Of a DNA stretch of 64,000 nucleotides, positions 1,426-33,776 are shown piece after piece. This DNA is from Oscillatoria princeps RMCB-10 (GTDB lineage: Bacteria > Cyanobacteriota > Cyanobacteriia > Cyanobacteriales > Oscillatoriaceae). The number at the start of each line of letters is the position of its first letter. The stretch's first letter is position 1. The stretch is from contig JAHHHT010000012.1 of the NCBI GenBank assembly GCA_019359235.1, forward strand, positions 3,648 through 67,647, given 5' to 3'. A model generated the notes under the pieces. It worked only from the letters and a program-made list of their open reading frames with translations. It did not search any database and was not told the DNA's origin. The position numbers were made by a program, and so were the translations under genes.

Positions 1426-1800
1426 ATGATGGAATCGCTGCAAACGCAAGTCAGCATGTTGAGTCACAAGCTGGATGCGCTGTACCAAATCATTGAGGAT
1501 CTCAGTAACAAGATATCCGAAGTGGTGTCCGAACGCAAGTTATCTGGCAGCCAGAGCGGTATGTCTCAAGTTGGGTTTAGTGTTGGGCGATATCACTATC
1601 CAAACCAGAACGCTCTGGATACGCTCCTGGAACATAAAGATGTGCTGGTTGATACAAACCGCTATGAAATTACCGCTCACAGTGCGGATCAAGAGTTAAC
1701 GCCAGAAATTCAAATCCAGCGGCTGACCGCACAACTGACTGCCGCCTACAACCGGATTGCGGCTTTGGAAGAACAGTTACTCTCTCACAGAATCCACTGA
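1426..1800 (+). CDS. hypothetical coiled-coil protein
   Basis: 124-aa ORF with coherent codon usage and heptad-like N- and C-terminal segments (LDALYQIIEDLSNKISEV; IQRLTAQLTAAYNRIAALEEQLL). Confidence 0.5.
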   Translation: MMESLQTQVSMLSHKLDALYQIIEDLSNKISEVVSERKLSGSQSGMSQVGFSVGRYHYPNQNALDTLLEHKDVLVDTNRYEITAHSADQELTPEIQIQRLTAQLTAAYNRIAALEEQLLSHRIH

Positions 1801-2030
1801 AACACTGAGTGGCGATCAGTGTGGAGTTTTGAGTTTTGAATTAAGAAGGTGTGCCTAAGAGCGCTTTTATAAAGTAATTGTTAAGCCAGACTGGTGGCCA
1901 TAAACCTGGAATCTTGCTGCAGGAGGGCGCTCGTTCTTCCGGCTTCCCCACCACAAGAAACCCGGTTTGTTGTGGCTTCACTTTTTCTTTATAAATGCCC
2001 TCTCAATAAACTTCACACAGTTCACCGGCA

Positions 2031-2232
2031 GATATAGCAGCAGTCACTTAGATTAGGACGTAGGACAGGCGTTCCCTCCGTAAGCGTTGCGGGACGCGAC
2101 AGCGTCCTTCCCAGAAACCTTGAGGGCAGGCGTTCCCTCCGACCTACGCCTTCCCTCCGTAAGCGTTGCGGGACGCGACAGCGTCCTGCCCGTGTCCTAA
2201 ACTGACTGCCTGCTGCTATATCTTGGAGAATC
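2031..2232. mobile_element. MITE-like element with 13-bp terminal inverted repeats (GATATAGCAGCAG ... CTGCTGCTATATC) and an internal ~40-bp direct duplication
   Basis: TIRs seen at 2031-2043 and 2220-2232; internal duplicate cgttccctccgtaagcgttgcgggacgcgacagcgtcct at ~2069 and ~2143; related copies at 2279-2389, 43152-43320, 49299-49437, 53215-53308. Confidence 0.6.
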
Positions 2233-2278
2233 CCGCCCTCACAACGAGAGTTCTGCAAAATCGATGCAATCGGATCTG

Positions 2279-2389
2279 AATATAGCAGTGGCCACTAAGG
2301 GCGCGGACGTAGGACAGGCGTCTCGCCTGTCCCTATCCCTACTAGCAAGTGAAATGCCTTGTCCATTACTGAGCTGTCTGTTGCTATAA
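2279..2389. mobile_element. second, shorter member of the same MITE family (TATAGCAG...CTGTTGCTATAAT)
   Basis: Shares the core gacgtaggacaggcgtctcgcctgtcc palindrome and TIR-like ends with 2031-2232. Confidence 0.45.
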
Positions 2390-2434
2390 TTACTCACTCA
2401 TCGCTCCGGAGCGCTTGGCAAGAGCGCAGCTCGC

Positions 2435-3685
2435 TTACGAGCGAGCCGCAACGCTTGCGACTAGCGCTTCAGTAGCGTGCAGGAGTAGGGATTGGTTCCA
2501 ACCCCGGTAGAGACTCGCCGCGATCGCCAGCCCGCCGGCACCCACGCCTTCCTTGACATATCCGCGCTCGTATGCTAAAAGCTGCGAGTAGCGAGACGCG
2601 GCAAAACTCAGCTCGGTGGCCATTAGGGGCACCTGTCCGACCTCTTCCGCCAGTCCAGCCGTGTCGCCGGTGGGGTCTTCCGCCACCCAGCGAGTGGTTC
2701 CCACCACAATTTCCTCCCGACGCCAGGGCAGGGAATACCGGTAGGCTAGAGCCTCAATTAAAGCATAAACCGCCAGCATTTGCGTGCCGCCGGCTAGCAA
2801 AACGCCGCCGGTGCGGCTAGCCGCGATCGCCATCCCCGCCGCCGCCACTTGCATCGGATCTCCCACCGCCGCCACCAGCTGCAGGGGATCGACCGATTTG
2901 GGATTTGGGATTTTGGATTTGTGATTTACAGGGGGCGCGTTAATTGATTTGGGATTTGGGATTTGGGATTTGGGATTTTCAGGTGGCGCGTCACCGGCAT
3001 CCCCCAGTGCAAAATCGAGCAAACCGGCACGCTGCAACCCCACTCGCACGACATCCCACTTCTGCGCGTGATTGCAACTGGGGTGACTGCTGTTCACCTT
3101 GCCGGTTGCCCGCACGCCCAAGCCGGTTAAAATCGCTAGGGCGGTTGTGGTGCCTCCCACCACGCACTCGCTGACGATTAAATATCCGGATGAATTCGCA
3201 AGCTTTTCGCCCCAGCTGAGTCCTTGCTCGAGCAGGTGTTTCACTGCGGATAGTTCCAAGGCGGTGCCGGTGGTGAGACAGCGTGCCGGTGCGCCGCCCA
3301 TATCTATTGCAGGTACTGCCGGCGCTTCCGGCAAACCCGCATTGAACAGGTAAACGGGGATTTCTATTGCCTCGACGACGGCGCGGGAAATCAGCACCGG
3401 CGAGACGCCGGCACAGAGGGGGGGCAAGGGATACTGGGGGCTCGCCACCGGCCCACTGCAGAGAAACTCGGCGTCCGCAATCGCCGTGCGCCGCCTTGCT
3501 TCTGGGGTTGCGCCGGCTGCTGAAATGCCGGGAATCAAGCAAGTGTCCGTGAATCCCAAAATGCAGGCGAATGCGGGCTTGATTCCCCGATACTTTTGCA
3601 GCCACCGCTGCCCTTGTTCCAGCTGGGTGTAGACGCGAATCATATCAATTTCGGTTGCGGGCATGGGGGATCGGGCATCAGGCAT
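2435..3685 (-). CDS. CobT-like nicotinate-nucleotide phosphoribosyltransferase-related protein (UPF0284 / TIGR00303 family)
   Basis: N-terminus MIRVYTQLEQGQRWLQKYRGIKPAFACILGFTDTCLIPGISAAG is typical of cyanobacterial/archaeal UPF0284 proteins. Contains an in-frame heptamer-repeat insertion (see repeat 2893-2992). True start may be an internal Met. Confidence 0.7.
   Translation of the reverse strand: MPDARSPMPATEIDMIRVYTQLEQGQRWLQKYRGIKPAFACILGFTDTCLIPGISAAGATPEARRRTAIADAEFLCSGPVASPQYPLPPLCAGVSPVLISRAVVEAIEIPVYLFNAGLPEAPAVPAIDMGGAPARCLTTGTALELSAVKHLLEQGLSWGEKLANSSGYLIVSECVVGGTTTALAILTGLGVRATGKVNSSHPSCNHAQKWDVVRVGLQRAGLLDFALGDAGDAPPENPKSQIPNPKSINAPPVNHKSKIPNPKSVDPLQLVAAVGDPMQVAAAGMAIAASRTGGVLLAGGTQMLAVYALIEALAYRYSLPWRREEIVVGTTRWVAEDPTGDTAGLAEEVGQVPLMATELSFAASRYSQLLAYERGYVKEGVGAGGLAIAASLYRGWNQSLLLHATEALVASVAARS
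2893..2992. repeat. STRR-type heptanucleotide tandem repeat (GGGATTT)n, two blocks, lying in-frame inside the CobT-like CDS
   Basis: tttgggatttgggattttggatttgtgattt ... gatttgggatttgggatttgggatttgggatttt; each block is followed by cagggggcgcgt / caggtggcgcgt; encodes the duplicated low-complexity NPKSQIPNPKS / NHKSKIPNPKS. Confidence 0.8.
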
Positions 3686-3723
3686 TTAGGAAAACAATTA
3701 TAGCGGTTTTCATCTGAGTGAGG

Positions 3724-3800
3724 TACTGAGAAACCCGGTTTCTTTAAGAAACCGGGTTTCTGGCATGTACTTCATCCAACTGAAAACCGCTATAATCCCC
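3724..3800. terminator. conserved palindromic hairpin element GAGAAACCCGGTTTCTTTAAGAAACCGGGTTTCTGG followed by catccaactga(a/g)aaccgctata; likely intrinsic terminator / REP-like unit
   Basis: Perfect 13-bp stem with a 5-nt loop 87 bp downstream of the DUF2232 stop. Same element at 35761-35835, 39796-39876, 41054-41084, 46755-46835, 59493-59530, and a degenerate copy at 58255-58350. Confidence 0.5.
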
Positions 3801-3846
3801 AATCCCCAATCCAAAATCCAAAATCCAAAATCCAAAATCCAAAATT
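3794..3846. repeat. STRR-type heptamer array (AATCCCC)2(AATCCAA)5, intergenic
   Basis: Direct tandem heptamers; reverse-complement orientation of the array inside the CobT-like gene. Confidence 0.8.
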
Positions 3847-4686
3847 CTATTCCTCAGTCAGCAGAACTTGCACCCAGGGTGGGGGTGGCGGAATCGGGTT
3901 GCCCAGGCGTTCTAGCAGCAGACAAGCCGCCAGATGCACCGCGAACAGATAAATCACATTATTGAGCAACACAATTGCCAGAGCGAGCGCCTGAATCAGC
4001 GCCAGTTCTGGCTGAGCTAGCAAACCCAGCCGCTCAAAAATCCATTCAGTCAATTCAGTAATTTGGGAAGTAAGGTAAACCCAGAGGTCTTCACCCAGCA
4101 AGATCGAGAGCAGCCAAATGCGAAAAAAGACTCCGAAGGAGCCAACCAGAGTGCCCATAAAAATAGAGACGTTCCAGTTAGCACCGCGCCGCCACAGCCC
4201 GCCCAAAAGCACTCCCAACAGGCCAAAAGGCATGACAAACAGGATACTGCGCGTCGGGCCCATCAGCACCGCGAGCAGCAACCCAGAAACCAGCGCCCCC
4301 ATCCAGGCGGCTCGCGCTCCCCAGCGCAGGTAAAGGAGCGCGATCGGAACGGGAAAAAAGATCCGCAGCACCGGCCCGAGGGGAAAATAGTAATTGATCA
4401 GCCAAATCAGACTGGCGGTACTGGCCAGAAAGGCTGTTTCCACCACAATCAAAGGGGCAACATCCTTCACCCTCTGGTCGGAAACAGGTGCCGAGCCGGT
4501 CGAAGGGGACGCCGCTGCCGGTGGGTTGAGGTCATATTCCGGTATCCACTCACCGGCATCTGACTCCTCTGGCTGACTGACCGGCTCAGCAGCAGATTCA
4601 ACGCCTGCCGATGAGTGCTGCTGGTTTTCAGCTTCACCGGCACCAGCTGTTTCAGGCGAAAAGCTATCTCCCTGGGGATTGCTCAT
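3847..4686 (-). CDS. DUF2232 (YybS-like) multi-pass membrane protein
   Basis: 279 aa; acidic N-terminal tail then 5-6 hydrophobic helices; proline-rich C-terminus. Resembles the conserved cyanobacterial DUF2232 family. Confidence 0.55.
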   Translation of the reverse strand: MSNPQGDSFSPETAGAGEAENQQHSSAGVESAAEPVSQPEESDAGEWIPEYDLNPPAAASPSTGSAPVSDQRVKDVAPLIVVETAFLASTASLIWLINYYFPLGPVLRIFFPVPIALLYLRWGARAAWMGALVSGLLLAVLMGPTRSILFVMPFGLLGVLLGGLWRRGANWNVSIFMGTLVGSFGVFFRIWLLSILLGEDLWVYLTSQITELTEWIFERLGLLAQPELALIQALALAIVLLNNVIYLFAVHLAACLLLERLGNPIPPPPPWVQVLLTEE

Positions 4687-4860
4687 GCAGATTATAGGGC
4701 AGCCTCATTGGGCCCGCCCGGATTAAGACAGCCGCAGACAATTTCGAGCCGCAGCTCGGACGGGAATGCGACAGACGCAGACATCTACCATTATCTGCGT
4801 TTATCTGCGTTCATCTGCGGTTTTTAAATTAATCGCCGCCTAAAATCCAAAAACTGCCAT

Positions 4861-5403
4861 CTAAGAATTCACAGCCGGCTCAGCCGCCGAACTGGCAGCG
4901 ACGGGCTCGGCTTCCGACTCTGGCGCGTGCTGAATCACGAGCACAGAACAGGGAGCGTGGTGCGTGACATAGTTGCTGACACTGCCAAGGAAAGCTTCTG
5001 CCAGTCCTGTGCGACCTCGGCGTCCCACCACAACCAGATCCGCTCCCCAGCTTTTGGCCAATTGACACAGAGATTCACCGGCTTCGCCAATCTTGAAGTC
5101 AAATTCTGCCGGCACGCCCTGACTGATGGCGGTATCGCAGTAGTGGCGAAGCATTTCCCGCCCCCGCTCTATCTGGGTTTCCATGTGCCGGTACTGAGAA
5201 ACGAAAGTATAATCGACAGCGGCAGCAGACATCCCCAGATCCACCGGCATTGCCACCATTGGCTCGCCGAGGTTTTCGTGAGTCAGACAGTGAAACAGCA
5301 TCAGACTGCCCCCTTGCACCAAAGCCATCTCCAGCGAGCGGGTAAAAACAGACTTGCTCAATTCCGAGTCATCTAGGGAAACGATAATCTTTTTAAAGCT
5401 CAT
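4861..5403 (-). CDS. universal stress protein (UspA family)
   Basis: IIVSLDDSELS...LVVVGRRGRTGLAEAFLGSVSNYVTHHAPCSVLVI matches the USP ATP-binding fold. Confidence 0.8.
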   Translation of the reverse strand: MSFKKIIVSLDDSELSKSVFTRSLEMALVQGGSLMLFHCLTHENLGEPMVAMPVDLGMSAAAVDYTFVSQYRHMETQIERGREMLRHYCDTAISQGVPAEFDFKIGEAGESLCQLAKSWGADLVVVGRRGRTGLAEAFLGSVSNYVTHHAPCSVLVIQHAPESEAEPVAASSAAEPAVNS

Positions 5404-5542
5404 GAATTCCTCCTTCGGGGGGGGTGGAGGTATGCCCCACCCTCACCTTAGCGCAGCCCGAGGTCAGAGCGGCAGCCGCACAACATTACTTGACAATTGA
5501 GAGAGTGGGAATAGCTTCATTTGGACAGCGAGCCCCGGACAG

Positions 5543-6250
5543 CTAGACGAGCAGGCGCTCCAGGGCGTGCAAGTCGGGAATGCAAAGAACATCGCGCTCC
5601 CGCTGAATCAGCCCTTTTTTTTCCAGCTTGCTGAGCACCCGCGTCACCGTCTCTCGGGCCAGTCCGCTGAGACTGCTCAATTCCCGGTGGGGCAAATTGG
5701 GAATTTCAAGACCTTCGGGGGATTGTTTTCCTTGGCCCTCCGCCAAAAACAGTAAAATATCGGCCACTCGCGAAGTGCTGTCCGCTTCCCGCAACCGCAA
5801 GCGGCGGTTGACTTGACGCAGACGCCGCGCCATCAGCTGAGCCAGCCTAATGCCGGCCAGGGGCTCTGTGTGAATCATCTGGACAAAATCCTGAGCCGGC
5901 AAATTGCCAATCACAGTAGGAGCGAGGGTAATCACATCCGTTGAGCGAGGCACCTCATCGAGTGCCGCCATCTCGCCAAACAGTTCTCCCTTGCCCAGAA
6001 TATTGAGGGTGACTTCCTTGCCATCCAGGTTGTAGGTGCGAATCTTCACCCAGCCGTCCAAAATGAAGTACACCGAACTGCCCCAGTCATTTTCGAGCAA
6101 AATGACCTGATTCGCTGGATGGCTGCGGCTGACAATATGGGCGGTGGCCTTTTCCACAATATCCTCTGGCAGGCCGGCAAAAAAAGGGGTAGAGCGAATC
6201 AACTGGTCAATATTGGAGTGGGGCTCGCGGAGGCTAAATCGTTCGTCCAT
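5543..6250 (-). CDS. Crp/Fnr-family transcriptional regulator (cNMP-binding domain + C-terminal HTH)
   Basis: FFAGLPEDIV...GELFGEMAAL (cNMP-binding beta-roll) and RELSSLSGLARETVTRVLSKLEKKGLI (HTH). Confidence 0.85.
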   Translation of the reverse strand: MDERFSLREPHSNIDQLIRSTPFFAGLPEDIVEKATAHIVSRSHPANQVILLENDWGSSVYFILDGWVKIRTYNLDGKEVTLNILGKGELFGEMAALDEVPRSTDVITLAPTVIGNLPAQDFVQMIHTEPLAGIRLAQLMARRLRQVNRRLRLREADSTSRVADILLFLAEGQGKQSPEGLEIPNLPHRELSSLSGLARETVTRVLSKLEKKGLIQRERDVLCIPDLHALERLLV

Positions 6251-6723
6251 GGGGCCTTCATATCCTAAACGCTCTTGAGGATGGATTCAGTTATAGAGTG
6301 CGGCGGGCGGGATGGGGAAGGGCTGAGCGCGTTTCAACAAGGGCATCCCAGCTTGGGCCAACTTCTTGGTAGCACCCGTACTGACTGACAAACCTATCTA
6401 GATCCTACAGGAGCCTTTGACGCTGGTAGGTTTCCAGCCTGCCAGACCCCTGGGGGGCACAGGCAGGGGCCTGAAAAGCGCCCCAGCACTTTTGGGTTTG
6501 GGTGCGCTTCCACCGGCAGGCTCCTGTTAACAGCAACCTGCGAGAAAAGCGCAATCAGTAGAAAACCCACCGCAATCATAGCTCAAAGATTTTGTGATTG
6601 CGGATCTGGAACGGCGACGCCACACGAGTGCCAGCTTCCCGGGCGGGAGCTTTGCACTATCTGTTCCCCCTGCCATTTCGGGGGGGATAGGGGGGTTAAA
6701 GGGGGAGCCGTTTGGGGGATGAC

Positions 6724-6731
6724 TGTATAAT
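6724..6731 (+). promoter_or_regulatory. candidate extended -10 (TGTATAAT) upstream of the giant gene
   Basis: Only sequence resemblance to the sigma70 -10 consensus, 73 nt upstream of the ATG at 6804. Confidence 0.2.
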
Positions 6732-6803
6732 AAAATCACCCAGCGGCAGAAGACTATTTTTCAAGAGCTCAATCCCGGGAAGGGGATTGAAAGAAACAAA
6801 CCT

Positions 6804-9800
6804 ATGAGCTCCCATCTGGATCAAATTCAAGCACTCATCTCCGACATTGACGGGGCGCTAGCGGCACCAGCGCCCCGCCTGCCTTGGATGGGAGATACTG
6901 CCAGCTTTCGCCGGCTCCTGGAGCGAATTCGCAACTATCTCGTCTGGCTGGAGGGCCAGGTGAGTGCGGGCGAGTCTTTTCTGCCACCGGCAGCGAATCA
7001 AAATCTGCGCGGCGCTGCCATCGAGCCGGTGCCGGCTGTCCCCTCCCCTGAAACGCCGGCTTGGGCCCAGCAGCTGCTGCAAGCGGTTGTGGGAGAGATG
7101 GCATCTGTGCGCTCTACCCTCGCGCAGCCAATACAGGCAGACTTGGCCGCCCTGCAACAGCAGCGGGACGCTCTGTTCAAAGAAATTCGCCAGTTGGAGG
7201 CTCAGCGACAGCACCAATACTCTCTGGTTCAGCAACAGGCTTCCCAGCAGCAAATTATTTCGGAATTTTTGCAGGCGTTAATGGGGCGCTTGCAGGAAAG
7301 CTTGACGGAGCAAGTGGCCCAGACGTTAGGCCATCTAGAGCAGCAATTTTTAACCGGATATGAATCGCCGCCGGTCGGGCAATCCCCGCTACAAGGGGCT
7401 GGCTACTCAACCTCAACAAGTCCGCTGCAGTTGCAAGGATCCAGCCGCCAAATGCACCCGCAAGAGCGCTTGGAGCGGATGCGGCTGCTGCAGCAAAAGA
7501 GCGACGAGCTGTTACTGACGCTGGACTCTACGCTCAAGGTGATGTTTGAAGCGCTGCTGCGGAATATTCACAGCTATGAGAAGTCTTTGGCCAGAGGGCT
7601 TGACAAAAGTTTCAATCCTGTTCCCGGAATTCAGCTAACAGAAATATCACCGCCGCCGCCACCTGAATTTATTATACCCGAAACCGACCGCAGCGAGTCC
7701 CGAAAGAACCTGCCACCGGCGGCGGCTGGCCCAACGCCAGACCCGGGCAGCTCGGTGAAATCCAACCGCCGCGCCGGTGCCGCTAAACCCAAACAGCCGA
7801 CTTCCGGGCTGCCCGCCCCACAGAGCAAACGGCAGCAGCCAGCCGCCGGCAACCGCACCGGAGCCACCGACACGGGGGCTTCCGACCGGCAAACTCCGGA
7901 AACACTTAACAGAGAACCTTCAGCGACAGAGAGTCCGCCGCAGCAAGAGGCGGCCCAAAACTTGCCGGGTTTGGGCCAAGCTGAGGCGGCGGAGATCGAA
8001 ACGCTGCTCAATCTGGACGTGGGGGCAACTGCTGCGCCAGCCCCATCAGAGCTAGCACCGGATGAGGATCTCAATGCCGTTCTTCAGCTGCTCAATGCCG
8101 AGCGCAATCCCTCTTCCGAGCGGGCTGAAGGAGGCGGCATTCCAGCCCGGTTGAGTGCCGGTGTTGCCTCTGCAGACTTCTCGCCGGATATCCACGAGCT
8201 TTATGCCAGTCTGTTTGGGGCTGAGGACGCCCCCGCCACTGCAGCGCCGGCAGCAGAGACTGCCACCGGCTCGCCGGTTCTGTTTGAAGAGGCACTGTTT
8301 GAGGGATTCCCGGATACGGCGGCTGTTGCCCCACCGGCACCCCAGCCAGAAAAATCTGTGACGTCTGTGACCCAGTCGCTCGAAGAGTTCTTATTTGATG
8401 GCGATTCAGCCGAAAGCACCCGCACGGGCTCCCTGAGGTTGGCAGATTTATTCGGGGAAACACCAGCAGAGCGGGAGAAGAATAGCACAAAAGAGTCAAT
8501 TAGTCAAGCGCCCAGTGCTGTAAGGGACCGGCCAGCCGCAAGCAGCACCGGCAGCGAGGATGACATATCCCTGAGCGAGCTTTTCGGAGAGCCAGAGGCA
8601 GGAGAAAGCAATCAGCAATCTGCCTTGAACCCTCAGCCTGGCGCGGCGCTCCACAAGTATGGGGCAAAGGGCTCTGAGGAGCAAAACCAGACCGCTGCCG
8701 ATCTCGCTTGGGAGACAGACAGCTATATCCCGGCATCGCCGGATGAGGATTTACTGCCAAACGTTGAAGAGGAGGGGGAGAGCCGGCTGCCAGCCTTCTG
8801 GATAGATGACAGCACCCTCGAGCAGCTTCGGGAGGATCTTTCGTTTGAACCCCGCTCCCAGGATTCAGCTGGCAGAACTGTTCGCCCCCCGCTTCCTGAA
8901 TTGATCGCACAGTCAGCCCCAACCGAGTCGGGCGCAGACGATTGGCTGGCTGAGCTGTCTGGAGAAAGCTCCCAGCTGCCGGACGCTACGCCAGAGCCAG
9001 AACCGCCGCCAGTTTTAGGGGACACGCCTTCGATGACGCTGGAAGAAGCGTTTGCCAGCTTAACGGAGGCAACGGCTCAGCCCTCACCGGCAGCAGTTAG
9101 CCCTAGCGATAGGGAATTAGCGATTGGCGATAGGGAATTAGCGGCGCGGAAGGCGCAGCGCGACCCAGGGCCAGCGCAACGGCCAGCCAGGATTTACAGC
9201 TCTTGGGAAGAGGCGGACTCACCAGATGTTTTGGATTGGAACGCTGTGGCGGCAACCCCTGAGCCCGACAGCGAGGTGTCGGCGCTCGACGATCTGTTTG
9301 CTAGCTTGACGGGAGAAGAGCCGGCACCATCTGAATTTGAGGGGCTGGACTTATTCGAGCCGTCTGGGGGAACGCTGGATGCGGACGCCACCGAGGAGCT
9401 GCGGGCAGCGGATCTCGACGATCTGTTTGCGGGCTTTGGTGAGGAAACCCCGACGCTCGCTGAGCCGTGGGCGCAACAGCCCTTAAAACCCCCCGCCCCC
9501 GACTCGGGGACAGAGGAAAAAAAAAAGGATTTAGAGGCGGCTGAGCTGCTGGCTTTTCTTGAGTCCGCCACAGCCGCACCGGCTTTGGGGAGGGAGGAAA
9601 GAACAGGGCCCGCAAAAGAGGGCTTTGGGCAGAAAGCCGCTGCCGCTGCCGGTGGAAAAACTGCGGGACAGGCATCTTCGCTGTCCGGTGCGCCATCCCC
9701 CGTTTTGGGGGAGAGCGAGTTCGGCCTTGCCCTCGACGGGGCTCAATCTCAGGGGAAGAGCGGCAGCGGTTCCCCACAAGTGGTGCCCTCTGAGGGCGAG

Positions 9801-11681
9801 CCGTCAGAAAAGGTCTGGTATTTGGGAATTGACTTTGGCACCACCGGCATTTCGGCAGCTCTGCTGAATCGCCAAACTTTGCAGGTGTATCCTATCTACT
9901 GGGTGGAAGGGGAACAGCTATCGGGTCAGGTGCGTTCCGCCGGCTTGAGTCATGCGCCAGACTTATTAATTTCTGGAAGCGCAACGCACCCTGCTAAAGA
10001 GCGCTTGTTTCGCTTGCCCTGTGTGGCTTATCTGTCAGCGGCTGGCGGTGAGTGGTCAGTGGCAGACGTGGGGCGGGCCACCGGCACCCCGCCTCTGGAG
10101 AAACCAGGGCTGTTGCTGCAGAATTTTAAGCCGTATTTGAAGGTGGCTATTGCCGGCACTTCCGCCCGGTCGGAGGCTGAGGCTGACCAGGGGCCTAACC
10201 CGTGGGAGCCTTGGGTGCAGTGGTCAGACCGGCACCTGATTCCTGCCGGTTGCCTGACAGACGCGGCGCGGGCGCTGCTGGCCACCCTCAAGCCGGTGAG
10301 CTCGGTTGTGGGGGGGAGTGGCGAGGAGCGCCAATCCCGAATTATCTCTGGGGCTGCGGGTCTCGAACCGGCAGCTTTCGGCAATGCGATGCGGAGTTTG
10401 GCCGGTGCTTGCTTGAGCTGCAACGTCTCAAGGCCTGACAGCTACAGTTTTAATCTGCGAGAAGCGGTTCTGGCGGCTGGGTTGGTGCGGCGTGCGGAGC
10501 AAATTGTCTTTGTTGAGGATGCGCTGGCGACGCTGCTGTCGGTTCTGGGAGGAGCTTCTGGGGAAAGTGTGACGGTTTCGGGCAGCTCTTCGCAAAAACT
10601 CAACCTTTTTAACGCTGACTGGCTGGGGGTGACTTTGGCTGTCAGTGCCGGTGCGACTGTGACGGAACTTTGTTTGGTGAATTTGCCAGACAACCTGCAA
10701 AACTTAACCCACGAGTCTTTCCGCTCTCACAGTTTTCCTTATGCCGGTGATGCGATGGATTTGGATATTATCTGCCAGCTGCTTTTGGGGGATAAAGGCA
10801 AAAGTGCGCTCCCCCTAGGCGCTCTGCCGGCAGAAGAGTTGCCGCGACCGGGGGAACCCGAGTTGCAGAAGCGCTATCGATTGCAGCAGCTGTTGCGCAG
10901 CTCGTCTCAGGGACAAGCGCTTCTGGAAGCGGCGAAGCACTTGAAGTTAATTCTGCAGCACCAAGAGCGCTTTACTTTGGAACTGGGGAGCCACAGGTGG
11001 GTTTGCACTCGCAGGGATCTGGAAAGCCGGGTGTTTGTGCCGTTCGTGCAGCGCTTGAATCGCGAGCTGAACGCTCTGCTCAGCCACACCGGCGTGCCGG
11101 TGCAAGCTATCGACCAAGCTTTGTGTACGGGTGGGACTGCTTCTCTGCCGGCTATCGCCCGCTGGTTGCGGCAAAAACTCCCCAACGCCACGATTATTCA
11201 GGACACTTACCCCAGCGAGCGCCCGCCGGCTTGCAGTCGTGTGGCCTACGGTCTGGCCACGCTTCCCCTGCACCCCCAAGTTTTCGATGTCAAAAGCCTG
11301 CACTACAGCGACTGCTTTCTGCTGCTGGAGCTGCTGCGGTGCTGTCCCGACCGACCGCTGTCTGTGGCGGAGATTGTGCGATTGCTGGAACTCAGGGGCA
11401 TTAATACCGGCATTTGCTTCGAGCGCATCCTGGCTGTGCTGGAAGGGGAGCTCCCCGCCTGGATTCGCCCAGATCCCTGTGAGGCTTTGCTGCTGACTCC
11501 TGAGTTCCGGGAAAATGCTGACAGTCTCGGACTGCATGCGGCTCCCCTTTTCTACAAGCAAGACAATAACACTTACCGCCCCAATGTCGAGCAGTGTCAG
11601 CGGCTGCGCCAGTACTTGAGCCAGCTGATGGCGGGGACTTACCAAAAATCAGACGAGCCGTTTACGGTTGATTTGGTGTGA
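6804..11681 (+). CDS. giant multidomain protein: N-terminal coiled coil, ~700-aa acidic/Pro-rich low-complexity region with repeated (D/E)LF(G/A) motifs, C-terminal Hsp70/actin-like ATPase domain
   Basis: 1625-aa ORF. Hsp70 signatures LGIDFGTTGIS (nt ~9820), CTGGTASLPAI and VAYGLATLPL near the C-terminus. Linker motifs ADLFGE, SELFGE, DDLFASLTGEE, LDLFEPSG, DDLFAGFGEE, EALFEGF. Confidence 0.75.
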   Translation: MSSHLDQIQALISDIDGALAAPAPRLPWMGDTASFRRLLERIRNYLVWLEGQVSAGESFLPPAANQNLRGAAIEPVPAVPSPETPAWAQQLLQAVVGEMASVRSTLAQPIQADLAALQQQRDALFKEIRQLEAQRQHQYSLVQQQASQQQIISEFLQALMGRLQESLTEQVAQTLGHLEQQFLTGYESPPVGQSPLQGAGYSTSTSPLQLQGSSRQMHPQERLERMRLLQQKSDELLLTLDSTLKVMFEALLRNIHSYEKSLARGLDKSFNPVPGIQLTEISPPPPPEFIIPETDRSESRKNLPPAAAGPTPDPGSSVKSNRRAGAAKPKQPTSGLPAPQSKRQQPAAGNRTGATDTGASDRQTPETLNREPSATESPPQQEAAQNLPGLGQAEAAEIETLLNLDVGATAAPAPSELAPDEDLNAVLQLLNAERNPSSERAEGGGIPARLSAGVASADFSPDIHELYASLFGAEDAPATAAPAAETATGSPVLFEEALFEGFPDTAAVAPPAPQPEKSVTSVTQSLEEFLFDGDSAESTRTGSLRLADLFGETPAEREKNSTKESISQAPSAVRDRPAASSTGSEDDISLSELFGEPEAGESNQQSALNPQPGAALHKYGAKGSEEQNQTAADLAWETDSYIPASPDEDLLPNVEEEGESRLPAFWIDDSTLEQLREDLSFEPRSQDSAGRTVRPPLPELIAQSAPTESGADDWLAELSGESSQLPDATPEPEPPPVLGDTPSMTLEEAFASLTEATAQPSPAAVSPSDRELAIGDRELAARKAQRDPGPAQRPARIYSSWEEADSPDVLDWNAVAATPEPDSEVSALDDLFASLTGEEPAPSEFEGLDLFEPSGGTLDADATEELRAADLDDLFAGFGEETPTLAEPWAQQPLKPPAPDSGTEEKKKDLEAAELLAFLESATAAPALGREERTGPAKEGFGQKAAAAAGGKTAGQASSLSGAPSPVLGESEFGLALDGAQSQGKSGSGSPQVVPSEGEPSEKVWYLGIDFGTTGISAALLNRQTLQVYPIYWVEGEQLSGQVRSAGLSHAPDLLISGSATHPAKERLFRLPCVAYLSAAGGEWSVADVGRATGTPPLEKPGLLLQNFKPYLKVAIAGTSARSEAEADQGPNPWEPWVQWSDRHLIPAGCLTDAARALLATLKPVSSVVGGSGEERQSRIISGAAGLEPAAFGNAMRSLAGACLSCNVSRPDSYSFNLREAVLAAGLVRRAEQIVFVEDALATLLSVLGGASGESVTVSGSSSQKLNLFNADWLGVTLAVSAGATVTELCLVNLPDNLQNLTHESFRSHSFPYAGDAMDLDIICQLLLGDKGKSALPLGALPAEELPRPGEPELQKRYRLQQLLRSSSQGQALLEAAKHLKLILQHQERFTLELGSHRWVCTRRDLESRVFVPFVQRLNRELNALLSHTGVPVQAIDQALCTGGTASLPAIARWLRQKLPNATIIQDTYPSERPPACSRVAYGLATLPLHPQVFDVKSLHYSDCFLLLELLRCCPDRPLSVAEIVRLLELRGINTGICFERILAVLEGELPAWIRPDPCEALLLTPEFRENADSLGLHAAPLFYKQDNNTYRPNVEQCQRLRQYLSQLMAGTYQKSDEPFTVDLV

Positions 11682-11724
11682 CTCCTCTGTGAGAAAGTTG
11701 AGGGGAAGGGGCGACACGGATAAG

Positions 11725-11765
11725 GAACCCCACCCCCCAACCCCCTCCCGCCCGCAGGGAAGGCG
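11725..11765. repeat. GC-rich palindromic element GAACCCCACCCCCCAACCCCCTCCC(G)... (family member)
   Basis: Other copies at 13247-13300, 18086-18128, 27651-27705, 47586-47640, 47757-47822; core hairpin CCCCCTCCCCG-N4-8-CGGGGAGGGGG. Confidence 0.6.
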
Positions 11766-11910
11766 CTGCACAATTGCGGGATGGTAATGTCTGTAGGGGC
11801 AGGCCCCCCTGCCCCCCCCCGATCGTGCAAGGGAGCCCCACAGGGGGATTGCCCCTACAGTTCGATCTGGATTGACCGCTGTTAGGCAGCGCCGGGGAAG
11901 GGATGCAGTC

Positions 11911-11940
11911 ATGCCCAATGCCCCATGCCCCATGCCCAAC
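11911..11940. repeat. heptamer tandem repeat (ATGCCCA/ATGCCCC)x4
   Basis: atgcccaatgccccatgccccatgcccaac. Confidence 0.6.
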
Positions 11941-12519
11941 CCTCTCTTTGGGGATGGCTCCCGCTGCAGGAGCGGAGGGCCGCGCTTGATTAAATAATAT
12001 AAATTCCGGACGATTACTTTATCTTTACAGGCAAGGCGCAAGAAGAAAGACCTTTAAAGGTAGCATTTTTCTTCCTTGTCCCGGCAGATATTTTGAAAAG
12101 CAATTAACCGCAAATTATATAAAAAAGTTTTTGGCAATTTGGCACCACCGGAGCGTATTGCCTTTGTACCATGAAACTGGTGGTTGAGAGTGGGAGGAAA
12201 CCTGAGAGTAAGTCCATTGTCCATATGTGCGGTAACTTTTCTGAGCCGTAGCATCTACTCGTCGGGACAAAAACATGAAAACTTTACACAGCGGCTGGGA
12301 ATTGCAAAGATTCAGTAAACTTCTCTACTTGGACGCGCTCCCTATCCGGGAAATCCCCTAATATGTTCTACAGAAAAGCAAACTTATCTGTAAGTGCTTA
12401 GAGCCGTGATTACTACTTCTGACGTACCCAGTTACTTCGCAAGCAAACTTTCTGTGGTTGATGGCAAATTTGAAGCGCTCTCGTTTGAGCGAGCGGTGCA
12501 TCCCTCTATCAATAGCAAA

Positions 12520-13104
12520 ATGAAACGCCTAATAGATGTTTTGGGCGCACTGATAGGGTTGATGATAACTGCTCTTTTGGCGGTTCCCATCGCCATAGCA
12601 ATTCAGCTGGACGATCCGGGCCCTATTTTCTACAGCCAGATTCGCTGCGGCTACCAGGGTAATTGCTTCCGGATTTGGAAATTCAGGTCGATGGTTGTGG
12701 ATGCCGAGAAACTGAAGCATCTGGTTCCCAATCAAGCAAATGGGCACATATTCAAGAATGAAAACGACCCCCGGATCACCCGGGTGGGAAGGTTTTTGCG
12801 CCGCACCAGCTTGGATGAGTTACCTCAATTCTGGAACGTTCTGATGGGGGATATGAGCTTAGTGGGAACCCGTCCGCCAACACCGGATGAAGTGAAGCGC
12901 TATGACAGTCACCACTGGCAGCGCTTGAATGTCAAGCCGGGGCTAACCGGCGAATGGCAAGTCAACGGGCGCTCGACTGTCAAAGACTTTGAAGATATTG
13001 TTCGGATGGATATGGATTATCAAATCAAGTGGTCTGTTGTTTACGACCTGAGCTTGATTGTCAAAACAGTGCTGGTTATTTTGAATAAAAAGGGCGCTTG
13101 CTAA
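12520..13104 (+). CDS. bacterial sugar transferase (polyprenyl glycosyl-phosphotransferase, EpsL/WbaP C-terminal-domain type)
   Basis: MKRLIDVLGALIGLMITALLAVPIAIAIQLDDPGPIFYSQIRCG...FRSM...DELPQFWNVLMGDMSLVGTRP. The ORF is open from 12394, but the family normally starts at the MKRL Met. Confidence 0.8.
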   Translation: MKRLIDVLGALIGLMITALLAVPIAIAIQLDDPGPIFYSQIRCGYQGNCFRIWKFRSMVVDAEKLKHLVPNQANGHIFKNENDPRITRVGRFLRRTSLDELPQFWNVLMGDMSLVGTRPPTPDEVKRYDSHHWQRLNVKPGLTGEWQVNGRSTVKDFEDIVRMDMDYQIKWSVVYDLSLIVKTVLVILNKKGAC

Positions 13105-13395
13105 GTGCAAAGCGCTTTAATGGGTGCCTGAATGTTTTTGCTGTTAGATTTTGGGGTGGCTCGGGAAGGAACCGCGCCGGCATTCCCGCTCTGGGGGGTG
13201 CCGGTGTGGTGCGTTTCGGGCGTTGCGTCGCAAAGCGTGGGATGAAGAACCCCACCCCCCAACCCCCTCCCCGCGCTTCGGGGAGGGGGAGTAAGAGGGG
13301 GATTTCGATGAGTGTAAAAAGTTTCCGCTCGTCCTTCTAGTGTGCAGCGCCGCATTTCCGGTAAGCTGGTAGGTGTGCTGCTTGGCTTGCGATTA

Positions 13396-13917
13396 ATGAC
13401 TCTTGCTAGCTGGATTACTGTCTCCCGCCTTTTGGGAGTGCCATTTTTGCTCTATTTCCTCCACAACCCGACACCGGCACAGCGGTGGGTGTGTCTGGCC
13501 ATTTTTCTGGTGGCTGCCGGCACGGATTGGCTGGACGGGTATGTGGCTAGGAAGTACAGCCAAATCACGGATTTGGGTAAGTTTCTCGACCCGCTGGTGG
13601 ACAAGTTGCTGGTTCTGGCTCCCCTGCTGGCACTGGTGGAGCTGGGACAGCTGCCGGCGTGGGGGGTGTTTTTGATTTTGGGGCGCGAGTTGGGGATTGC
13701 CGGCTGGCGGGTTAACCAAACTTCGATTGCCGGTGCGAATATCTGGGGAAAGCTGAAAACTGTGAGTCAAATTGTGGCGATCTCTCTTTTAATCGCTCCT
13801 CTGGCTGATGTCTGGAAAGTGCCGTCTCTGGTGGCTTTCTGGATTTGTGTTGCTCTGACGCTGATTTCTGGCGCTATTTATATTTGGCCGCAAAATATGG
13901 CGGGGAAAGAGGCTTGA
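13396..13917 (+). CDS. pgsA: CDP-diacylglycerol--glycerol-3-phosphate 3-phosphatidyltransferase
   Basis: CDP-alcohol phosphatidyltransferase motif DWLDGYVARK...G...D...D; hydrophobic multi-TM profile. ORF is open from 13342; start chosen at MTLASW. Confidence 0.8.
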   Translation: MTLASWITVSRLLGVPFLLYFLHNPTPAQRWVCLAIFLVAAGTDWLDGYVARKYSQITDLGKFLDPLVDKLLVLAPLLALVELGQLPAWGVFLILGRELGIAGWRVNQTSIAGANIWGKLKTVSQIVAISLLIAPLADVWKVPSLVAFWICVALTLISGAIYIWPQNMAGKEA

Positions 13918-18331: not shown

Positions 18332-21007
18332 TCAAACGATCGTGCCGTCGGAAAAGAATACCTGGAACTCCTCAAACGACAGGTCAATAAACCCATCGTT
18401 ATTCCTGTCCCTGGAACCTGCCGGCGCATCTACGCCCCAGGGATTAAACACGACAATGCGCTCAGCGTCCGAGTCAGTCACATAGACCTGGGTAATTGCG
18501 TAAGGGTGATTGGCAACTATCAAGCCGGCTGAATTAGCCGCACTTTCTCTGTCAGTAGAGGCCGCTACAAACCGGCCCGTATCAAAAGCTTGGTTTATCC
18601 GCTCAAACGTGAAGTCCGCAAAGGTGCCGGTGGCGCGGCTGTCTCCATTCCTAAACACATCCGCCTTGCGGGAAGTCAGCTGGGAGATCGCCTCAGAAAC
18701 ATCACCCCCTCGGCTAATCAATTCATAGCCATTTGTCGCGTCCCCTTCTTGCCACTGCTGCCACACTGCGTAAGCTTTTTCCAGCAGCGTTATCCAAATC
18801 GGTCGGTTATTCGGGTTGCTGGGAACCTCCAGATTTTTGTCCTTAGCGCCGTATATCTCGCCGGCGTACACTGCCACATCCTGATTCACTGTCACCCACT
18901 GCTCAGCGCCGTTTTCGTAGAAGCGCACGCCGTAGGTTTGGTCGCCGTTATCAAAGATTGCACCGGCAATCGCCTCACTCGATTTTCCTGGATTGTTCCC
19001 CGCCACCGGCCTGAACGTTGCGCCAGCAGCCGCAATCAAAAAGCTGTCCGCAAACTGGTTTTGATTCACCTGCGAAATTTGCGGCACATTTTCGCTGCCA
19101 TACAGCTGTCCTGTTAGCCGCTGAAGTTCCAAGTTGAAAACCCTGGAATCCCCACTGCCGTCTGTCGCCGTGTAGGGAGGATTGTAAGGCTGAACAATCC
19201 CGCGAAACCAGCGGTTAACAATCTCCTTAAACGGAGCGGTTTGTACGGCTCCTAGACTGTTCGCTATCTTCCCGGCATCCTGAACAACCTGTTCCGCAAT
19301 AAACGCTACATAGGGCGGTAAATCAAACTGCTTCTGATTCCCCACTAAGGCTTTTAAATCCTGCAACTCAGCTTCCGTGACGATATCATCGTCTGTCGCT
19401 CTGTCAAATATCTGCAACATGTCGTTGCGGCTTAATTGCCCATCCGCAGACAGGGTGCGGGCGTCTGTTCGCACTTGCTCATCTTCCAAGCTGTTCAAGT
19501 CGAGGGTTGGGTCTGACAGCGGTGTCGAAACAAGACGGGCGTTCAAAGTGTAACTTCCTGTGGCGTCTTCATTAAAGCTCGTCACGCGCACGATGTACTC
19601 AGTTCCCGCATCTGCAGTGAAGGTCACGGCAGAGTTGAGGTCGCCCCGCGCCCGACCAAAATCTTTGCTTTCCGCAACCGGCATGCCGGTGAGGGCGTCT
19701 ATCACTTGCAGATAAGTTTCAAACTGCCCAGAATTGGCGCTGATTTGCACAATTTGATCCGCAGAAACGCCCGTCAGCCGGTAGTCATCGCTGTAGGTTC
19801 CGGGACGAGTGGGGTTATCCAAGTCCGTGGTGGCGAGGGAGTTGCTGCGGGAGGAGGAGACGGCGAGAGAAGCAACGATGGGGCTGGACGCATCTGCAGT
19901 CAGGGTGAAATTGCCGGTGCCGGCAAGCTGTTTGGGATCGCTCGTCACGCGAATTGCATATCGCACGCCTTGCTGCGCGGTAAAATTGAGCGCGGAATTG
20001 CTGTCGCTGCCGGTGGGGATGGCTTCTCCTGTGAGGGCGTCCACCAGTTCCAGGCGGGGGCTGAATTCGGTGGAGGTGAGGGTGACTTCTACCTGCTGAC
20101 CGGCAGTTACCTCTCGCAGGATGTAGTCTTTGGCGAAAGTCCCCTCTTGCAGGGGGTTAACTTTGTCTTGAAACGACAAATTGCCAATAATCGTGTCATC
20201 GCCACGGATGAAGTCAGCCTCTTCAAAGCCGGTTAAGAAGCTGCCGTTTTTTAGGGTGCGGCGCGGTTCCCTGATTCCACTGGTAATATAGTGTTTGTAG
20301 GCTCCCTCGAAGTTGAAACCGGCTGCCTGCAAGTCTGGGCTTGACTCTAAGTACGCTCTGACATTAAAATTCTCTGTGGAGGCGCGTCCTTCGTTAATGC
20401 CGGTGCTTTCAAAGTGTTCTAGCAGCTGCCGGTTGCTGAGGCGGGCAGACCGCAAGTCCGGATTGGCATTCCGGTAAAACTGAACATCAAACGCTGGGGA
20501 AAAGGGGCGACTTTCCGCCAGGCCGAAGTTTTCCAGGTGATCTAAAAGCTGCCGTCCTTTCAAACCGGCAGCGAACAAGTCTGGATTGTTTGCGAGATAG
20601 TAATTGGGGTCAAAGAAGGGGGATAAGTTGCGCTGTTCCGCTAAGCCGGATAGCAGCAGGTGGTCGTAGGCTTGCTCCAGGTTGCCCTTAAAGGCTTGCT
20701 GCAAGTCGGGGTTGGCTTCTAAATAATATTCTAAATCGATAAAGGGTGAAAATTTGCGCCCCTCCTGCAAGCCAAAGTTTTGCAAGTGCTCGAAGAGCTG
20801 TTTGTTGGTGGTCAAGCCGGCTGCTTTCAGGTCGGGGTTGGCTTGCCGGTAGAAGTTGAGGTTGATGAGGGGGGAGAAGGGACGCCCTTCGTTGAGGCCA
20901 AACTGCTGGAAGTGGAGCCGGAGCTGTTGGTCAGCTGTCAGACCGGCTGCTGCTAAGTCTGGGTTGACTTGCCGGTAGTAATTGACATCGAATAAGTCTT
21001 TGGCCAC
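18332..21007 (-). CDS. multidomain calpain-like (peptidase C2-fold) protein: 6-7 N-terminal ~38-aa repeats, two pre-peptidase C-terminal (PPC) domains, C-terminal calpain-like domain with Ser replacing the catalytic Cys
   Basis: Calpain core alignment: FADSFLIAAAGA (calpain GDCWLLAA), IWITLLEKAYAVW (FWSALLEKAYAK), LIVANHPYAIT (LVKGHAYSVT), IVVFNPWG (IRMRNPWG). N-terminal repeats NYY(R/L)xANPDL..AGL...LxHxxxFGLxEGR. Confidence 0.8.
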   Translation of the reverse strand: MAKDLFDVNYYRQVNPDLAAAGLTADQQLRLHFQQFGLNEGRPFSPLINLNFYRQANPDLKAAGLTTNKQLFEHLQNFGLQEGRKFSPFIDLEYYLEANPDLQQAFKGNLEQAYDHLLLSGLAEQRNLSPFFDPNYYLANNPDLFAAGLKGRQLLDHLENFGLAESRPFSPAFDVQFYRNANPDLRSARLSNRQLLEHFESTGINEGRASTENFNVRAYLESSPDLQAAGFNFEGAYKHYITSGIREPRRTLKNGSFLTGFEEADFIRGDDTIIGNLSFQDKVNPLQEGTFAKDYILREVTAGQQVEVTLTSTEFSPRLELVDALTGEAIPTGSDSNSALNFTAQQGVRYAIRVTSDPKQLAGTGNFTLTADASSPIVASLAVSSSRSNSLATTDLDNPTRPGTYSDDYRLTGVSADQIVQISANSGQFETYLQVIDALTGMPVAESKDFGRARGDLNSAVTFTADAGTEYIVRVTSFNEDATGSYTLNARLVSTPLSDPTLDLNSLEDEQVRTDARTLSADGQLSRNDMLQIFDRATDDDIVTEAELQDLKALVGNQKQFDLPPYVAFIAEQVVQDAGKIANSLGAVQTAPFKEIVNRWFRGIVQPYNPPYTATDGSGDSRVFNLELQRLTGQLYGSENVPQISQVNQNQFADSFLIAAAGATFRPVAGNNPGKSSEAIAGAIFDNGDQTYGVRFYENGAEQWVTVNQDVAVYAGEIYGAKDKNLEVPSNPNNRPIWITLLEKAYAVWQQWQEGDATNGYELISRGGDVSEAISQLTSRKADVFRNGDSRATGTFADFTFERINQAFDTGRFVAASTDRESAANSAGLIVANHPYAITQVYVTDSDAERIVVFNPWGVDAPAGSRDRNNDGFIDLSFEEFQVFFSDGTIV

Positions 21008-27598: not shown

Positions 27599-27858
27599 AA
27601 CCGGGCGGATAAGCCGGCAGCCCTAGGGCGCTGGACATTCCTGCGATCGAGAACCCCACCCCCCAACCCCCTCCCCGTAAACGGGGAGGGGGAGCAAGAG
27701 GGGATTACCCTCGTTCGCCGGCGGAGCGGGGGAGATGCCCAAAAGGAGGCTGCGGATATATCTCGCAGGACAGGCGTCTCGCCTGTCCCAATCTGTCCCA
27801 ATCTCCTTGAGAGCGAGCGAGATGACATTTTTTCCAACAGCTGTTAATATACTGCAGA

Positions 27859-30192: not shown

Positions 30193-30243
30193 ACCGCCAA
30201 GACGCCAAGAGCGCCAAGTTTTAGAAGGGGAAGCAGCTATCTA

Positions 30244-31896: not shown

Positions 31897-31915
31897 TATC
31901 CAACCTCTTGGCGTC

Positions 31916-33340: not shown

Positions 33341-33776
33341 GCGCTTCTCCCCACCCCGTAGGGTGCCGTTCCGAGCGGGAACGCACCCGAAGAGTTTATT
33401 TACCAAAATTGCTAGTTTCCGGGCGATTAGAAATCGCGGCTATACAGACTTTCGCCCGCCTACGCGGGCTAATATAACATCGATCTTATCAAAATATGCG
33501 CGGTTTTACCTCGTTTCCAAGCTCTGACTTGAAAATGTTTGTAGTTGGGCTTTAGCCCAATCGGCGGGACTCGTAGGGGCGCAGAATTTTCATCGGTGGC
33601 GGTGTGCGCAGTTCCGAAGCGACTGCCTGGAAACTCAGGGAGAAGATGGAGCCGGCGCACAATCTCTTCAATTACAACTTTCAGAATTACTCCTCCTTTA
33701 GATAGGGAGCGAAAACCCATCACAGAAGTGTTACAACTAGCAGTATAACAACTCTAACCCAAACAAGCAAAAGACA

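Follow-up and report, generated by a model that had tools for sequence, protein, structure and literature searches.

The stretch of DNA considered here, the window, comprises 64,000 nucleotides from Oscillatoria princeps RMCB-10 (contig JAHHHT010000012.1, positions 3,648 to 67,647), and carries a giant open reading frame (ORF) whose product belongs to a single-copy, syntenic family of proteins restricted to cyanobacteria. The exact protein is deposited publicly under MBW4494506.1, as the 'hypothetical protein KME26_15760' of a metagenome-assembled genome (MAG) of O. princeps RMCB-10. Its architecture consists of a coiled-coil/helical N-terminal domain, an acidic disordered tether with three collinear motifs, a divergent Hsp70-type nucleotide-binding domain (NBD), and an acidic winged helix. 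A preliminary description of the window, made from the letters alone, had placed a 1625-aa protein at 6804-11681, and this is exact: the ORF is on the + strand, starts with ATG and has 1625 codons. No transmembrane segment is predicted in the protein, which is cytoplasmic and lacks a signal peptide. The features of the gene are listed below, with residues numbered along the full-length product.

6804..11681, + strand: giant ORF, ATG start, 1625 amino acids (aa), 174 kDa, isoelectric point (pI) 4.6
6804..7607, + strand: N-terminal conserved helical/coiled-coil domain, residues 1-268; three conserved helical blocks with variable loops between them
7608..9812, + strand: acidic, Pro-rich, low-hydrophobicity linker, residues 269-1003; disorder predicted from composition
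8190..8219, + strand: motif M1, HELYASLFGA, residues 463-472; consensus (D/E)VDxLYASLFG
8724..8759, + strand: motif M2, YIPASPDEDLLP, residues 641-652; consensus YIPASPxE(N/D)LL
8796..8846, + strand: motif M3, FWIDDSTLEQLREDLSF, residues 665-681; consensus DISLEExQLxQLExDLAxFD, amphipathic
9288..9314, + strand: second M1-like copy, DDLFASLTG, residues 829-837; from the BLOSUM scan
9517..9526, + strand: A10 homopolymer, GAG GAA AAA AAA AAG, encoding E904 E905 K906 K907 K908; candidate programmed slippage site
9813..11243, + strand: Hsp70-type actin-fold NBD, residues 1004-1480; from predicted structure and fold search
9822-9848, + strand: phosphate-1 motif LGIDFGTTG, in which LGIDFGTT is residues 1007-1014
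11124-11150, + strand: adenosine motif CTGGTASLP, residues 1441-1449
11292..11648, + strand: C-terminal acidic winged-helix domain, residues ~1497-1615; from predicted structure and fold search

A search for orthologues, which the preliminary description had proposed, recovered a conserved cyanobacterial family—a scan of one genome per species places relatives in at least 569 cyanobacterial species. With residues 1001-1625 as the query, 516 proteins were retrieved at 40-53% identity; all those with a name are cyanobacterial and called 'hypothetical'. The closest relatives among the matches listed come from an uncultured Oscillatoria (90%) and Oscillatoria sp. PCC 10802 (86%), and the matches carrying names belong to filamentous genera only, except for one MAG. 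In a profile search of 1.8 billion representative proteins, no more than 494 clusters matched at E ≤ 1e-3. Of these, 150 were listed; in all of them the ATPase-like domain is C-terminal, and those long enough to be complete span 1.1-2.7 thousand residues. Because the family profile stays clear of the very large Hsp70, MreB and FtsA families, the family counts as tight and isolated in sequence space.

We found no description of this family in the literature. Its members are named 'hypothetical protein' wherever they are named, bar one auto-generated 'Molecular chaperone' label, and have no Pfam domain; scans of the whole protein and its parts against Pfam, NCBIfam and PADLOC assigned no family, and the giant protein has no NCBIfam match. 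What is new here is a domain of the Hsp70/actin superfamily in a new conserved architecture, together with a candidate recoding site. The result is a widespread, uncharacterised family (at least 569 species) beside a near-invariant Crp-type regulator, with concrete experimental handles—defined domains, three peptide motifs, a catalytic-site pattern, a putative regulator, and a candidate slippage tract.

That the window comes from a MAG, and that many database homologues are annotated as fragments of 570-1090 aa, might suggest that the giant ORF is an assembly or annotation artefact joining unrelated genes; we regard this as extremely improbable. Locus-level counts, here and below, rest on the best 80 of at least 569 loci. 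In 64 of the 80, complete isolate genomes included, the N-terminal domain, linker and C-terminal module are collinear in one uninterrupted ORF of 1207-2573 aa. Most of the exceptions are cut by contig ends (9 loci), and in seven loci the N-half and the ATPase half lie in different ORFs. By tblastn, 73 of the 80 loci have the N-terminal 268 residues ahead of the ATPase-like domain, and the N-terminus and start position are conserved in orthologues. This single-ORF collinearity, along with the full-length representatives in the exhaustive profile search, rules out the assembly chimera that the preliminary description had raised.

Predicted domains and tether motifs

The C-terminal module is a four-subdomain actin-fold NBD that most resembles the NBDs of Hsp70 proteins. 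An AlphaFold2 model of the module, built with 64 homologues, is confident, with a predicted local distance difference test score (pLDDT) of 86.9 and a predicted template modelling (TM) score (pTM) of 0.90, and the top 50 PDB matches returned by Foldseek are all NBDs of the Hsp70 family (E~1e-12, target-normalised TM up to 0.68). Within the Hsp70 class, fold-comparison scores are 27.9 for the HSP110 NBD, 26.7 for Ssb1, 26.3 for Ssz1, 25.9 for BiP, and 25.0 for Sse1; other actin-fold proteins score 25.3 (MreB), 24.9 (BeeR), 21.3 (MamK), 20.6 (FtsA), 19.0 (PilM), 18.3 (CorM), and 17.2 (EutJ). The module was thus checked for a better fit to PilM, FtsA or EutJ than to Hsp70, and no such fit was found: Hsp70/110 is best, with MreB close.

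An Hsp70-like ATPase had been claimed for this protein; the Hsp70-like fold stands, but membership of the Hsp70 family does not. There is no match to HSP70 (PF00012) at E ≤ 10, either with the full protein or with the isolated C-terminal 625 aa. The sole Pfam match in the C-terminal module is to PilM_2, over 64 residues and below threshold (18 bits versus a cut-off of 27), and the protein neither reaches the PilM (PF11104) family threshold nor lies in a PilN/O/P/Q gene context. Searches of PDB sequences with phmmer and with profiles gave marginal matches only; for the family profile these were PilM (3e-3), Sse1 (2e-2) and DnaK (5e-2), all in subdomains IIB/IIA and covering ~90 residues in the case of DnaK and Sse1. 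An hhalign comparison of the family profile with an approximate E. coli DnaK NBD sequence aligned subdomains IIB/IIA only, with a probability of 14.5%, and serves as no more than a lead.

The two signatures that had been quoted from the sequence, LGIDFGTT and CTGGTASLP, are both present at the residues listed above. Across 64 sequences, the invariant or near-invariant columns are D1010 (phosphate 1), K1109, E1238, G1283, T1287, and G1443-G1444; judged by eye, D1010, K1109 and E1238 appear equivalent to D8, K70 and E171 of DnaK. The canonical phosphate-2 Asp position, 1281, is N in 29, H in 11, S in 10, D in 8, and C in 5 of the 64 sequences, and the phosphate-2 motif reads A-G-A-T-x-T-E, which is PilM-like. 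The catalytic set of Hsp70, which includes the phosphate-2 Asp of DxGGGT, is therefore incomplete, and this NBD may have altered or weak hydrolysis. The protein is not a canonical DnaK, as had been proposed: it fails on the family hidden Markov model (HMM), on the phosphate-2 Asp, and on the substrate-binding domain. At residues 1207-1210 (10422-10433), the window protein has N-V-S-R where the family reads 'YPANWSDTY', with P in 61 and W in 57 of 64 sequences, both near-invariant; the difference could be specific to the lineage or an error in the MAG.

The ATPase does not lie at the extreme C-terminus, where it had been placed; its fold ends at about residue 1480, and a domain of ~120 aa then follows. 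Residues 1481-1625 fold as a winged helix, which stands in the place of the Hsp70 substrate-binding domain—the absence of the latter had been claimed and is borne out. The domain is acidic (pI 5.0, net charge -6), and for this reason we infer that it binds protein rather than DNA.

At the other end of the protein, the blocks of the N-terminal domain cover residues ~1-55, ~100-190 and ~225-268, with 12 invariant columns in an alignment of 35 sequences (A3). The domain has no Pfam family. Its central segment gives weak profile matches to generic coiled coils (ZapB at E 1.7e-3, mitofusin HR2, and Max), and a protein homology search with the whole N-terminal domain returned 4 fragments, the word index of the search being limiting. 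The N-terminal coiled coil proposed earlier is thus a conserved helical domain whose coiled-coil nature is plausible, judging from these weak profile matches.

The ~700-aa acidic, largely disordered linker of the preliminary description measures 735 aa, with 131 D+E versus 50 K+R, a pI of 4.1, 11% Pro and few order-promoting residues; the disorder is predicted from this composition. In orthologues the linker varies from 315 to 1654 aa and is acidic throughout (D+E 14-29% versus K+R 1-7%). At least eight D/E-L-F motifs had been reported, and all eight boxes are there (residues 465, 496, 528, 548, 592, 829, 849 and 872), far above shuffled expectation: a strict regular expression finds 6 in the linker versus 0.35 expected from shuffled linkers. 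Their conservation is uneven, however. The boxes at residues 466 and 831 match the orthologue-conserved motif; the other six are weakly conserved or lineage-specific, and many Nostocales linkers have 0 or 1 box. Boxes other than M1 and its second copy are lineage-specific degenerate versions. Nothing tested supports the suggested likeness to eukaryotic adaptor or clathrin-box peptides.

Motif conservation was assessed with an ungapped BLOSUM scan of 57 distant orthologues against shuffled controls, which replaced a BLAST-coverage map of the linker in which low-complexity alignment segments had merged. M1 is the strongest conserved island (91% of the 57 orthologues), M2 is present in 84%, and M3, in 60%, is always located ~20 residues past M2. 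There are no DNA tandem repeats in the linker, and the motif copies are therefore not recent duplications.

The A-tract ahead of the ATPase domain

The A10 tract lies ~96 codons ahead of the ATPase domain and contains, in phase, the A_AAA_AAG heptamer of dnaX. It is the only A/T run of at least 9 in the 64-kb window. Related loci totalling 1.35 Mb contain 45 such runs, of which ~29 are the tract site itself: A9-10 is found there in ~29 of 80 loci, in Oscillatoria, Microcoleus, Elainellales, Leptolyngbya FACHB-8 and many Nostocales, with completely diverged flanks. At other KKK sites in long ORFs of the loci, 0 of 6 have A ≥ 9. A slippery run of at least 9 is, in short, conserved at the nucleotide level across orthologues.

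In six of the seven loci whose halves occupy different ORFs (L006, L009, L016, L020, L030 and L056), the frame changes at the A9-10 Glu-Lys-Lys-Lys site. L006, L016, L030 and L056 need a -1 shift; the upstream ORF stops 2-3 codons past the run, and the ATPase frame is open for 612-748 codons. A +1 shift is needed in L009, and L020 is complex. In L016, no ATG, GTG or TTG occurs from the opening of the downstream frame to the ATPase domain. The out-of-frame arrangement is reproducible—seven independent assemblies of Coleofasciculus (2 NCBI genomes and 5 Sequence Read Archive (SRA) runs, with single-nucleotide differences) all have A9, the same stop two codons after it, and an ATPase -1 frame that is already open 12 codons ahead of the run. 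The site is also identical among three assemblies of the L009 lineage. Because the split is identical across assemblies, it is neither sequencing noise nor fast DNA-level phase variation.

For the window gene, mRNAs with A8, A9, A11 or A12 would encode products of 909-913 aa that end just past the tract. In the in-frame loci, the +1 frame meets a stop after a median of 3 codons versus 12 at controls (P~6e-4, with kinship ignored), and the -1 frame is not distinctive. No conserved stimulatory stem-loop was found downstream of the tract (mean z -0.11 over 27 loci). Efficient -1 ribosomal frameshifting requires a stem-loop or pseudoknot, whereas transcriptional slippage does not; should the site be functional, the result favours transcriptional slippage over structured -1 frameshifting, although the heptamer is that of dnaX.

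The A9-A10 tract would then be a slippage site, most likely a transcriptional one. In the window organism, slippage would add to the 174-kDa protein a ~97-kDa isoform that keeps the coiled coil and tether but has no ATPase module. In the out-of-frame lineages it would be needed for the full-length form, and in Coleofasciculus it would give a full-length fusion with the trans-frame peptide PEKKNSVGIPTQ. Slippage in the manner of dnaX tau/gamma would set the ratio of scaffold to ATPase modules. If true, this would be a dnaX-like two-isoform mechanism in a non-mobile, non-replication gene, and it would explain why annotation pipelines split or truncate the giant gene. We found no prior link of this gene family to recoding in the literature.

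Alternatively, the tract may not be programmed at all: it would be a Lys-Lys-Lys patch, at which occasional lineage-specific frameshifts lead to genuine gene fission or to a decaying gene. We consider this a serious contender, a little short of even odds. Several observations weigh for it and against slippage. The long run is missing in about half of the family, where it was lost or shortened through in-frame changes; fissions would concentrate at a poly-A run in any case, as such runs are mutational hotspots; alternative linker frames end fast anyway (control medians of 8-12 codons); and there is no stimulatory RNA structure. Additionally, the Coleofasciculus ATPase ORF has a called ATG start, and the start/stop overlap ATGAGTAA of the L009 lineage, typical of coupled genes, is compatible with ordinary translational coupling. 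Yet 9-10 identical bases, three synonymous third positions included, are kept despite flanks that have completely diverged across orders, in loci from which such runs are otherwise nearly absent. Runs of at least 9 A/T are slippage-prone and are generally selected against in coding DNA (PMC1088944). Fission gives no reason to keep the run, yet all six loci split at the site still carry A9-10, across which the downstream frame stays open, and L016 lacks any start codon for its downstream half. As for decay, both halves are intact over 600-1200 codons, and the gene is therefore not decaying.

The overlap in the L009 lineage, an Oscillatoriaceae one, is seen in L088 (the same as L009) at positions 3990-4010: the stop of the N-half and the ATG of the ATPase half overlap, preceded by GAGG, 30 nt past the A9. 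The arrangement points to translational coupling or re-initiation as a different or additional way of making the downstream half.

Regulator and genomic neighbourhood

The giant gene is divergent from a Crp-family regulator gene, as had been noted, and shares with it the following region.

5543..6250, - strand: divergent Crp-family regulator, with a cyclic nucleotide monophosphate (cNMP)-binding domain (cNMP_binding, 8e-23) and a Crp-type helix-turn-helix (HTH_Crp_2, 4e-17; Pfam)
6251..6803, no strand: shared divergent intergenic region of 553 bp between the Crp gene and the giant ORF

In 58 of 80 loci the Crp gene lies upstream of the giant gene in divergent orientation, its identity of 78-99% being unusually high across orders, and the same gene order is found in Coleofasciculus and in an Oscillatoriaceae lineage. 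The regulator falls below the NtcA, PtrA and CRP equivalog cut-offs of NCBIfam, by which its identification as NtcA, PtrA or enterobacterial CRP was rejected. It keeps the residues GELFGE...PRST and RETVTR, which, read by eye against E. coli CRP, we take to be contacts to cAMP and to the TGTGA half-site. Since a divergent regulator-target pair is conserved, regulation is suggested, and the Crp protein probably controls expression of the giant gene.

The divergent intergenic region is 297-1986 bp long in other loci. A promoter scan found no sigma-70 consensus pair in it, and there is no Rfam match in 5400-12500. CRP-type sites, TGTGA-N6-TCACA (up to 2 mismatches), or NtcA-type sites, GTA-N8-TAC, occur in 10-11 of 59 intergenic regions; they are not enriched, and none is conserved. 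In the window, four closely spaced G-runs (GGGGGGG, GGGGGG, GGGGG and GGGGG) were seen by eye at 6677-6719 (+) and are a possible G-quadruplex-forming, promoter-proximal element. A few bases past them is a TATAAT (6726-6731) with TG before it, ~72 nt ahead of the giant ATG. Nostocales loci (e.g., L023, L040 and L047) have an identical Shine-Dalgarno-like TAAGGTAAA 14 nt before the start of the giant ORF, in 21-30 loci, and further conserved words, TTAATTTTTGCTAA, CTATGTTACACAA and AGCCTAAGCTAT, 150-800 nt upstream of it. These shared intergenic k-mers, TAAGGTAAA included, are Nostocales-specific and absent from the window; they may be clade-specific regulatory sites.

Other genes around the giant gene are syntenic as well: DUF2232 in 54 of the 80 loci, a CobT-like gene in 47, the ORF at 1426-1800 in 40, and the downstream sugar phosphotransferase in 29. 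The deep synteny block comprises 1426-6250 upstream of the giant gene (ORF 1426-1800, CobT-like, DUF2232 membrane protein, Usp, and Crp) and 12394-13917 downstream (Bac_transf sugar phosphotransferase and PgsA), with parts kept in 29-58 of 80 loci in several orders. The Pfam scan, which took in most, but not all, of the window ORFs of at least 230 aa, revealed no dnaK, dnaJ or grpE, no pil genes and no division genes. A 130-aa antisense ORF overlies the 3' end of the giant gene (11649-12041, -); it has no Pfam match and one weak relative, and is probably spurious.

Farther along the window, a co-directional block at 23441-35693 (+) encodes an AAA_16 protein of 1385 aa whose C-terminal domain is FHA, a HEAT/PBS-lyase-repeat protein of 777 aa, a HEAT-repeat protein of 550 aa whose C-terminal domain is a dual-specificity phosphatase, and two MMR_HSR1/dynamin-like GTPases, 474 and 638 aa long. 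This block resembles the GTPase-centred multi-gene systems of multicellular prokaryotes (PMC7159879). The window also contains a 990-aa STAND NTPase with NACHT, HEAT and NCC-H domains (49482-52454, -), a 931-aa WD40 protein with 12 repeats (43450-46245, -), and a protein of 891 aa whose C-terminal domain is a calpain-like Peptidase_C2 (18332-21007, -)—signalling or conflict gene content typical of a 'multicellular cyanobacterium'.

Proposed mechanism and comparison with known systems

Taken as a whole, the protein is best explained as a scaffold with a nucleotide-dependent switch or clamp, a motif-bearing tether, slippage isoforms and Crp control; we give this combined reading a probability of roughly 0.45. 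The N-terminal domain would oligomerise to form the scaffold. The NBD and winged helix would act as a switch or clamp and not as a protein-folding chaperone; because the phosphate-2 Asp is lost and there is no substrate-binding domain, the NBD is likened to the ATP-binding, poorly hydrolysing Hsp110/Ssz1 or to PilM. The tether motifs would recruit partners, or dock onto the protein's own NBD or winged helix, much as FtsA, PilM, ParM and MreB bind short partner peptides. Some lineages encode the halves as separate ORFs, from which we infer that the N-half and ATPase half would cooperate in trans (Rosetta-stone logic). Expression would be under the adjacent cNMP-type Crp regulator.

Cyanobacteria, to our knowledge, lack FtsA, and much of their division, filament integrity, motility, and thylakoid and carboxysome organisation depends on coiled-coil and actin-like factors that are specific to the lineage and are just beginning to be discovered. 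The protein might, on a more tentative and distinctly less probable view, be a cyanobacteria-specific cell-organising machine: a scaffold made in two isoforms tuned by A9-10 slippage, with and without an Hsp70-derived switch, with motif-recruited partners and Crp control. If this were true, the Hsp70/actin superfamily would gain a new functional branch, and the tract would be the first conserved recoding site on the chromosome to be described in a cellular gene family of cyanobacteria.

Two other readings of the protein place it closer to established machinery. It could be a polymerising, actin-like cytoskeletal protein of the MreB/FtsA/ParM type, whose coiled coil and tether link filaments to cargo. 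We find this unlikely; MreB comes close in fold score, but PilM, FtsA, MreB, ParM and FcmB/CorM all score below Hsp70 against the giant NBD, which has neither a membrane-targeting helix nor partner genes for PilN, FtsZ or ParR nearby. Or it could be an atypical component of an Hsp70 system—an Hsp110/Ssz1-like nucleotide exchange factor or co-chaperone working with DnaK/DnaJ, the tether serving as a holdase or client-recruiting region. The Hsp110 and Ssz1 NBDs are among its best structural matches, but we hold this to be less likely still, given that the protein has no HSP70 HMM match, ends in a winged helix with no substrate-binding domain, and belongs to a family of 494 clusters with no bleed into the Hsp70s; nor do dnaK, dnaJ or grpE occur among the window ORFs scanned.

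Compared with the scaffold and switch reading we prefer, known systems share some of the parts. The NBDs of Hsp70/Hsp110 proteins (DnaK, BiP, Sse1/HSP105 and Ssz1) are 13-17% identical to the giant NBD, which lacks their PF00012 match, has N, H or S for the phosphate-2 Asp, and is ~100 aa longer through loop insertions. Where Hsp70s have a beta-sandwich substrate-binding domain and lid, the giant protein has a winged-helix tail, and its NBD is placed at the end of a coiled coil and a ~735-aa disordered tether; the window ORFs that were scanned also include no gene for a J-protein or GrpE. In none of the bacterial actin-like ATPases PilM, FtsA, MreB, ParM and FcmB/CorM is the ATPase fused to a coiled coil, disordered tether or winged helix. 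FcmB/CorM, cyanobacterial actins of ~330 aa, belong to a different, ParM-derived family, and this identity was rejected for the giant protein (PMC12645912).

Hsp70-domain proteins without a substrate-binding domain are known from GTPase-centred conflict systems of multicellular prokaryotes (Kaur et al. 2020, PMC7159879). Like the giant protein, they combine an Hsp70 NBD with the absence of a peptide-binding domain and are enriched in multicellular bacteria. In contrast, they reside in variable GTPase/GrpE/effector operons, whereas the giant gene is orthologous and single-copy, and its conserved neighbourhood is of the housekeeping type. Against the PADLOC defence models, the giant protein gives only a 0.019 coiled-coil-type match, which does not qualify it as a defence or conflict protein, and identity with the conflict-system Hsp70s was rejected on this context of stable synteny with no meaningful PADLOC match.

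For the tract, the closest parallels are dnaX, mxiE and tssM. In Thermus dnaX, an A9 run leads to ~50% short product, and in Shigella mxiE the long product requires slippage (PMC1088944); some dnaX genes consist of two ORFs joined at an A10 (PMC3711429), and Citrobacter tssM exists in two length variants (PMC4256274). The tract differs from these cases in being known here from sequence alone, in being missing from about half of its family, and in having no stimulatory structure that we could find. It is like them in its run of 9-10 A, in its position at a domain boundary late in a long gene, and in having orthologues both in-frame and out-of-frame; as in these systems, slipped products end within a few codons, so that a long and a short isoform would result.

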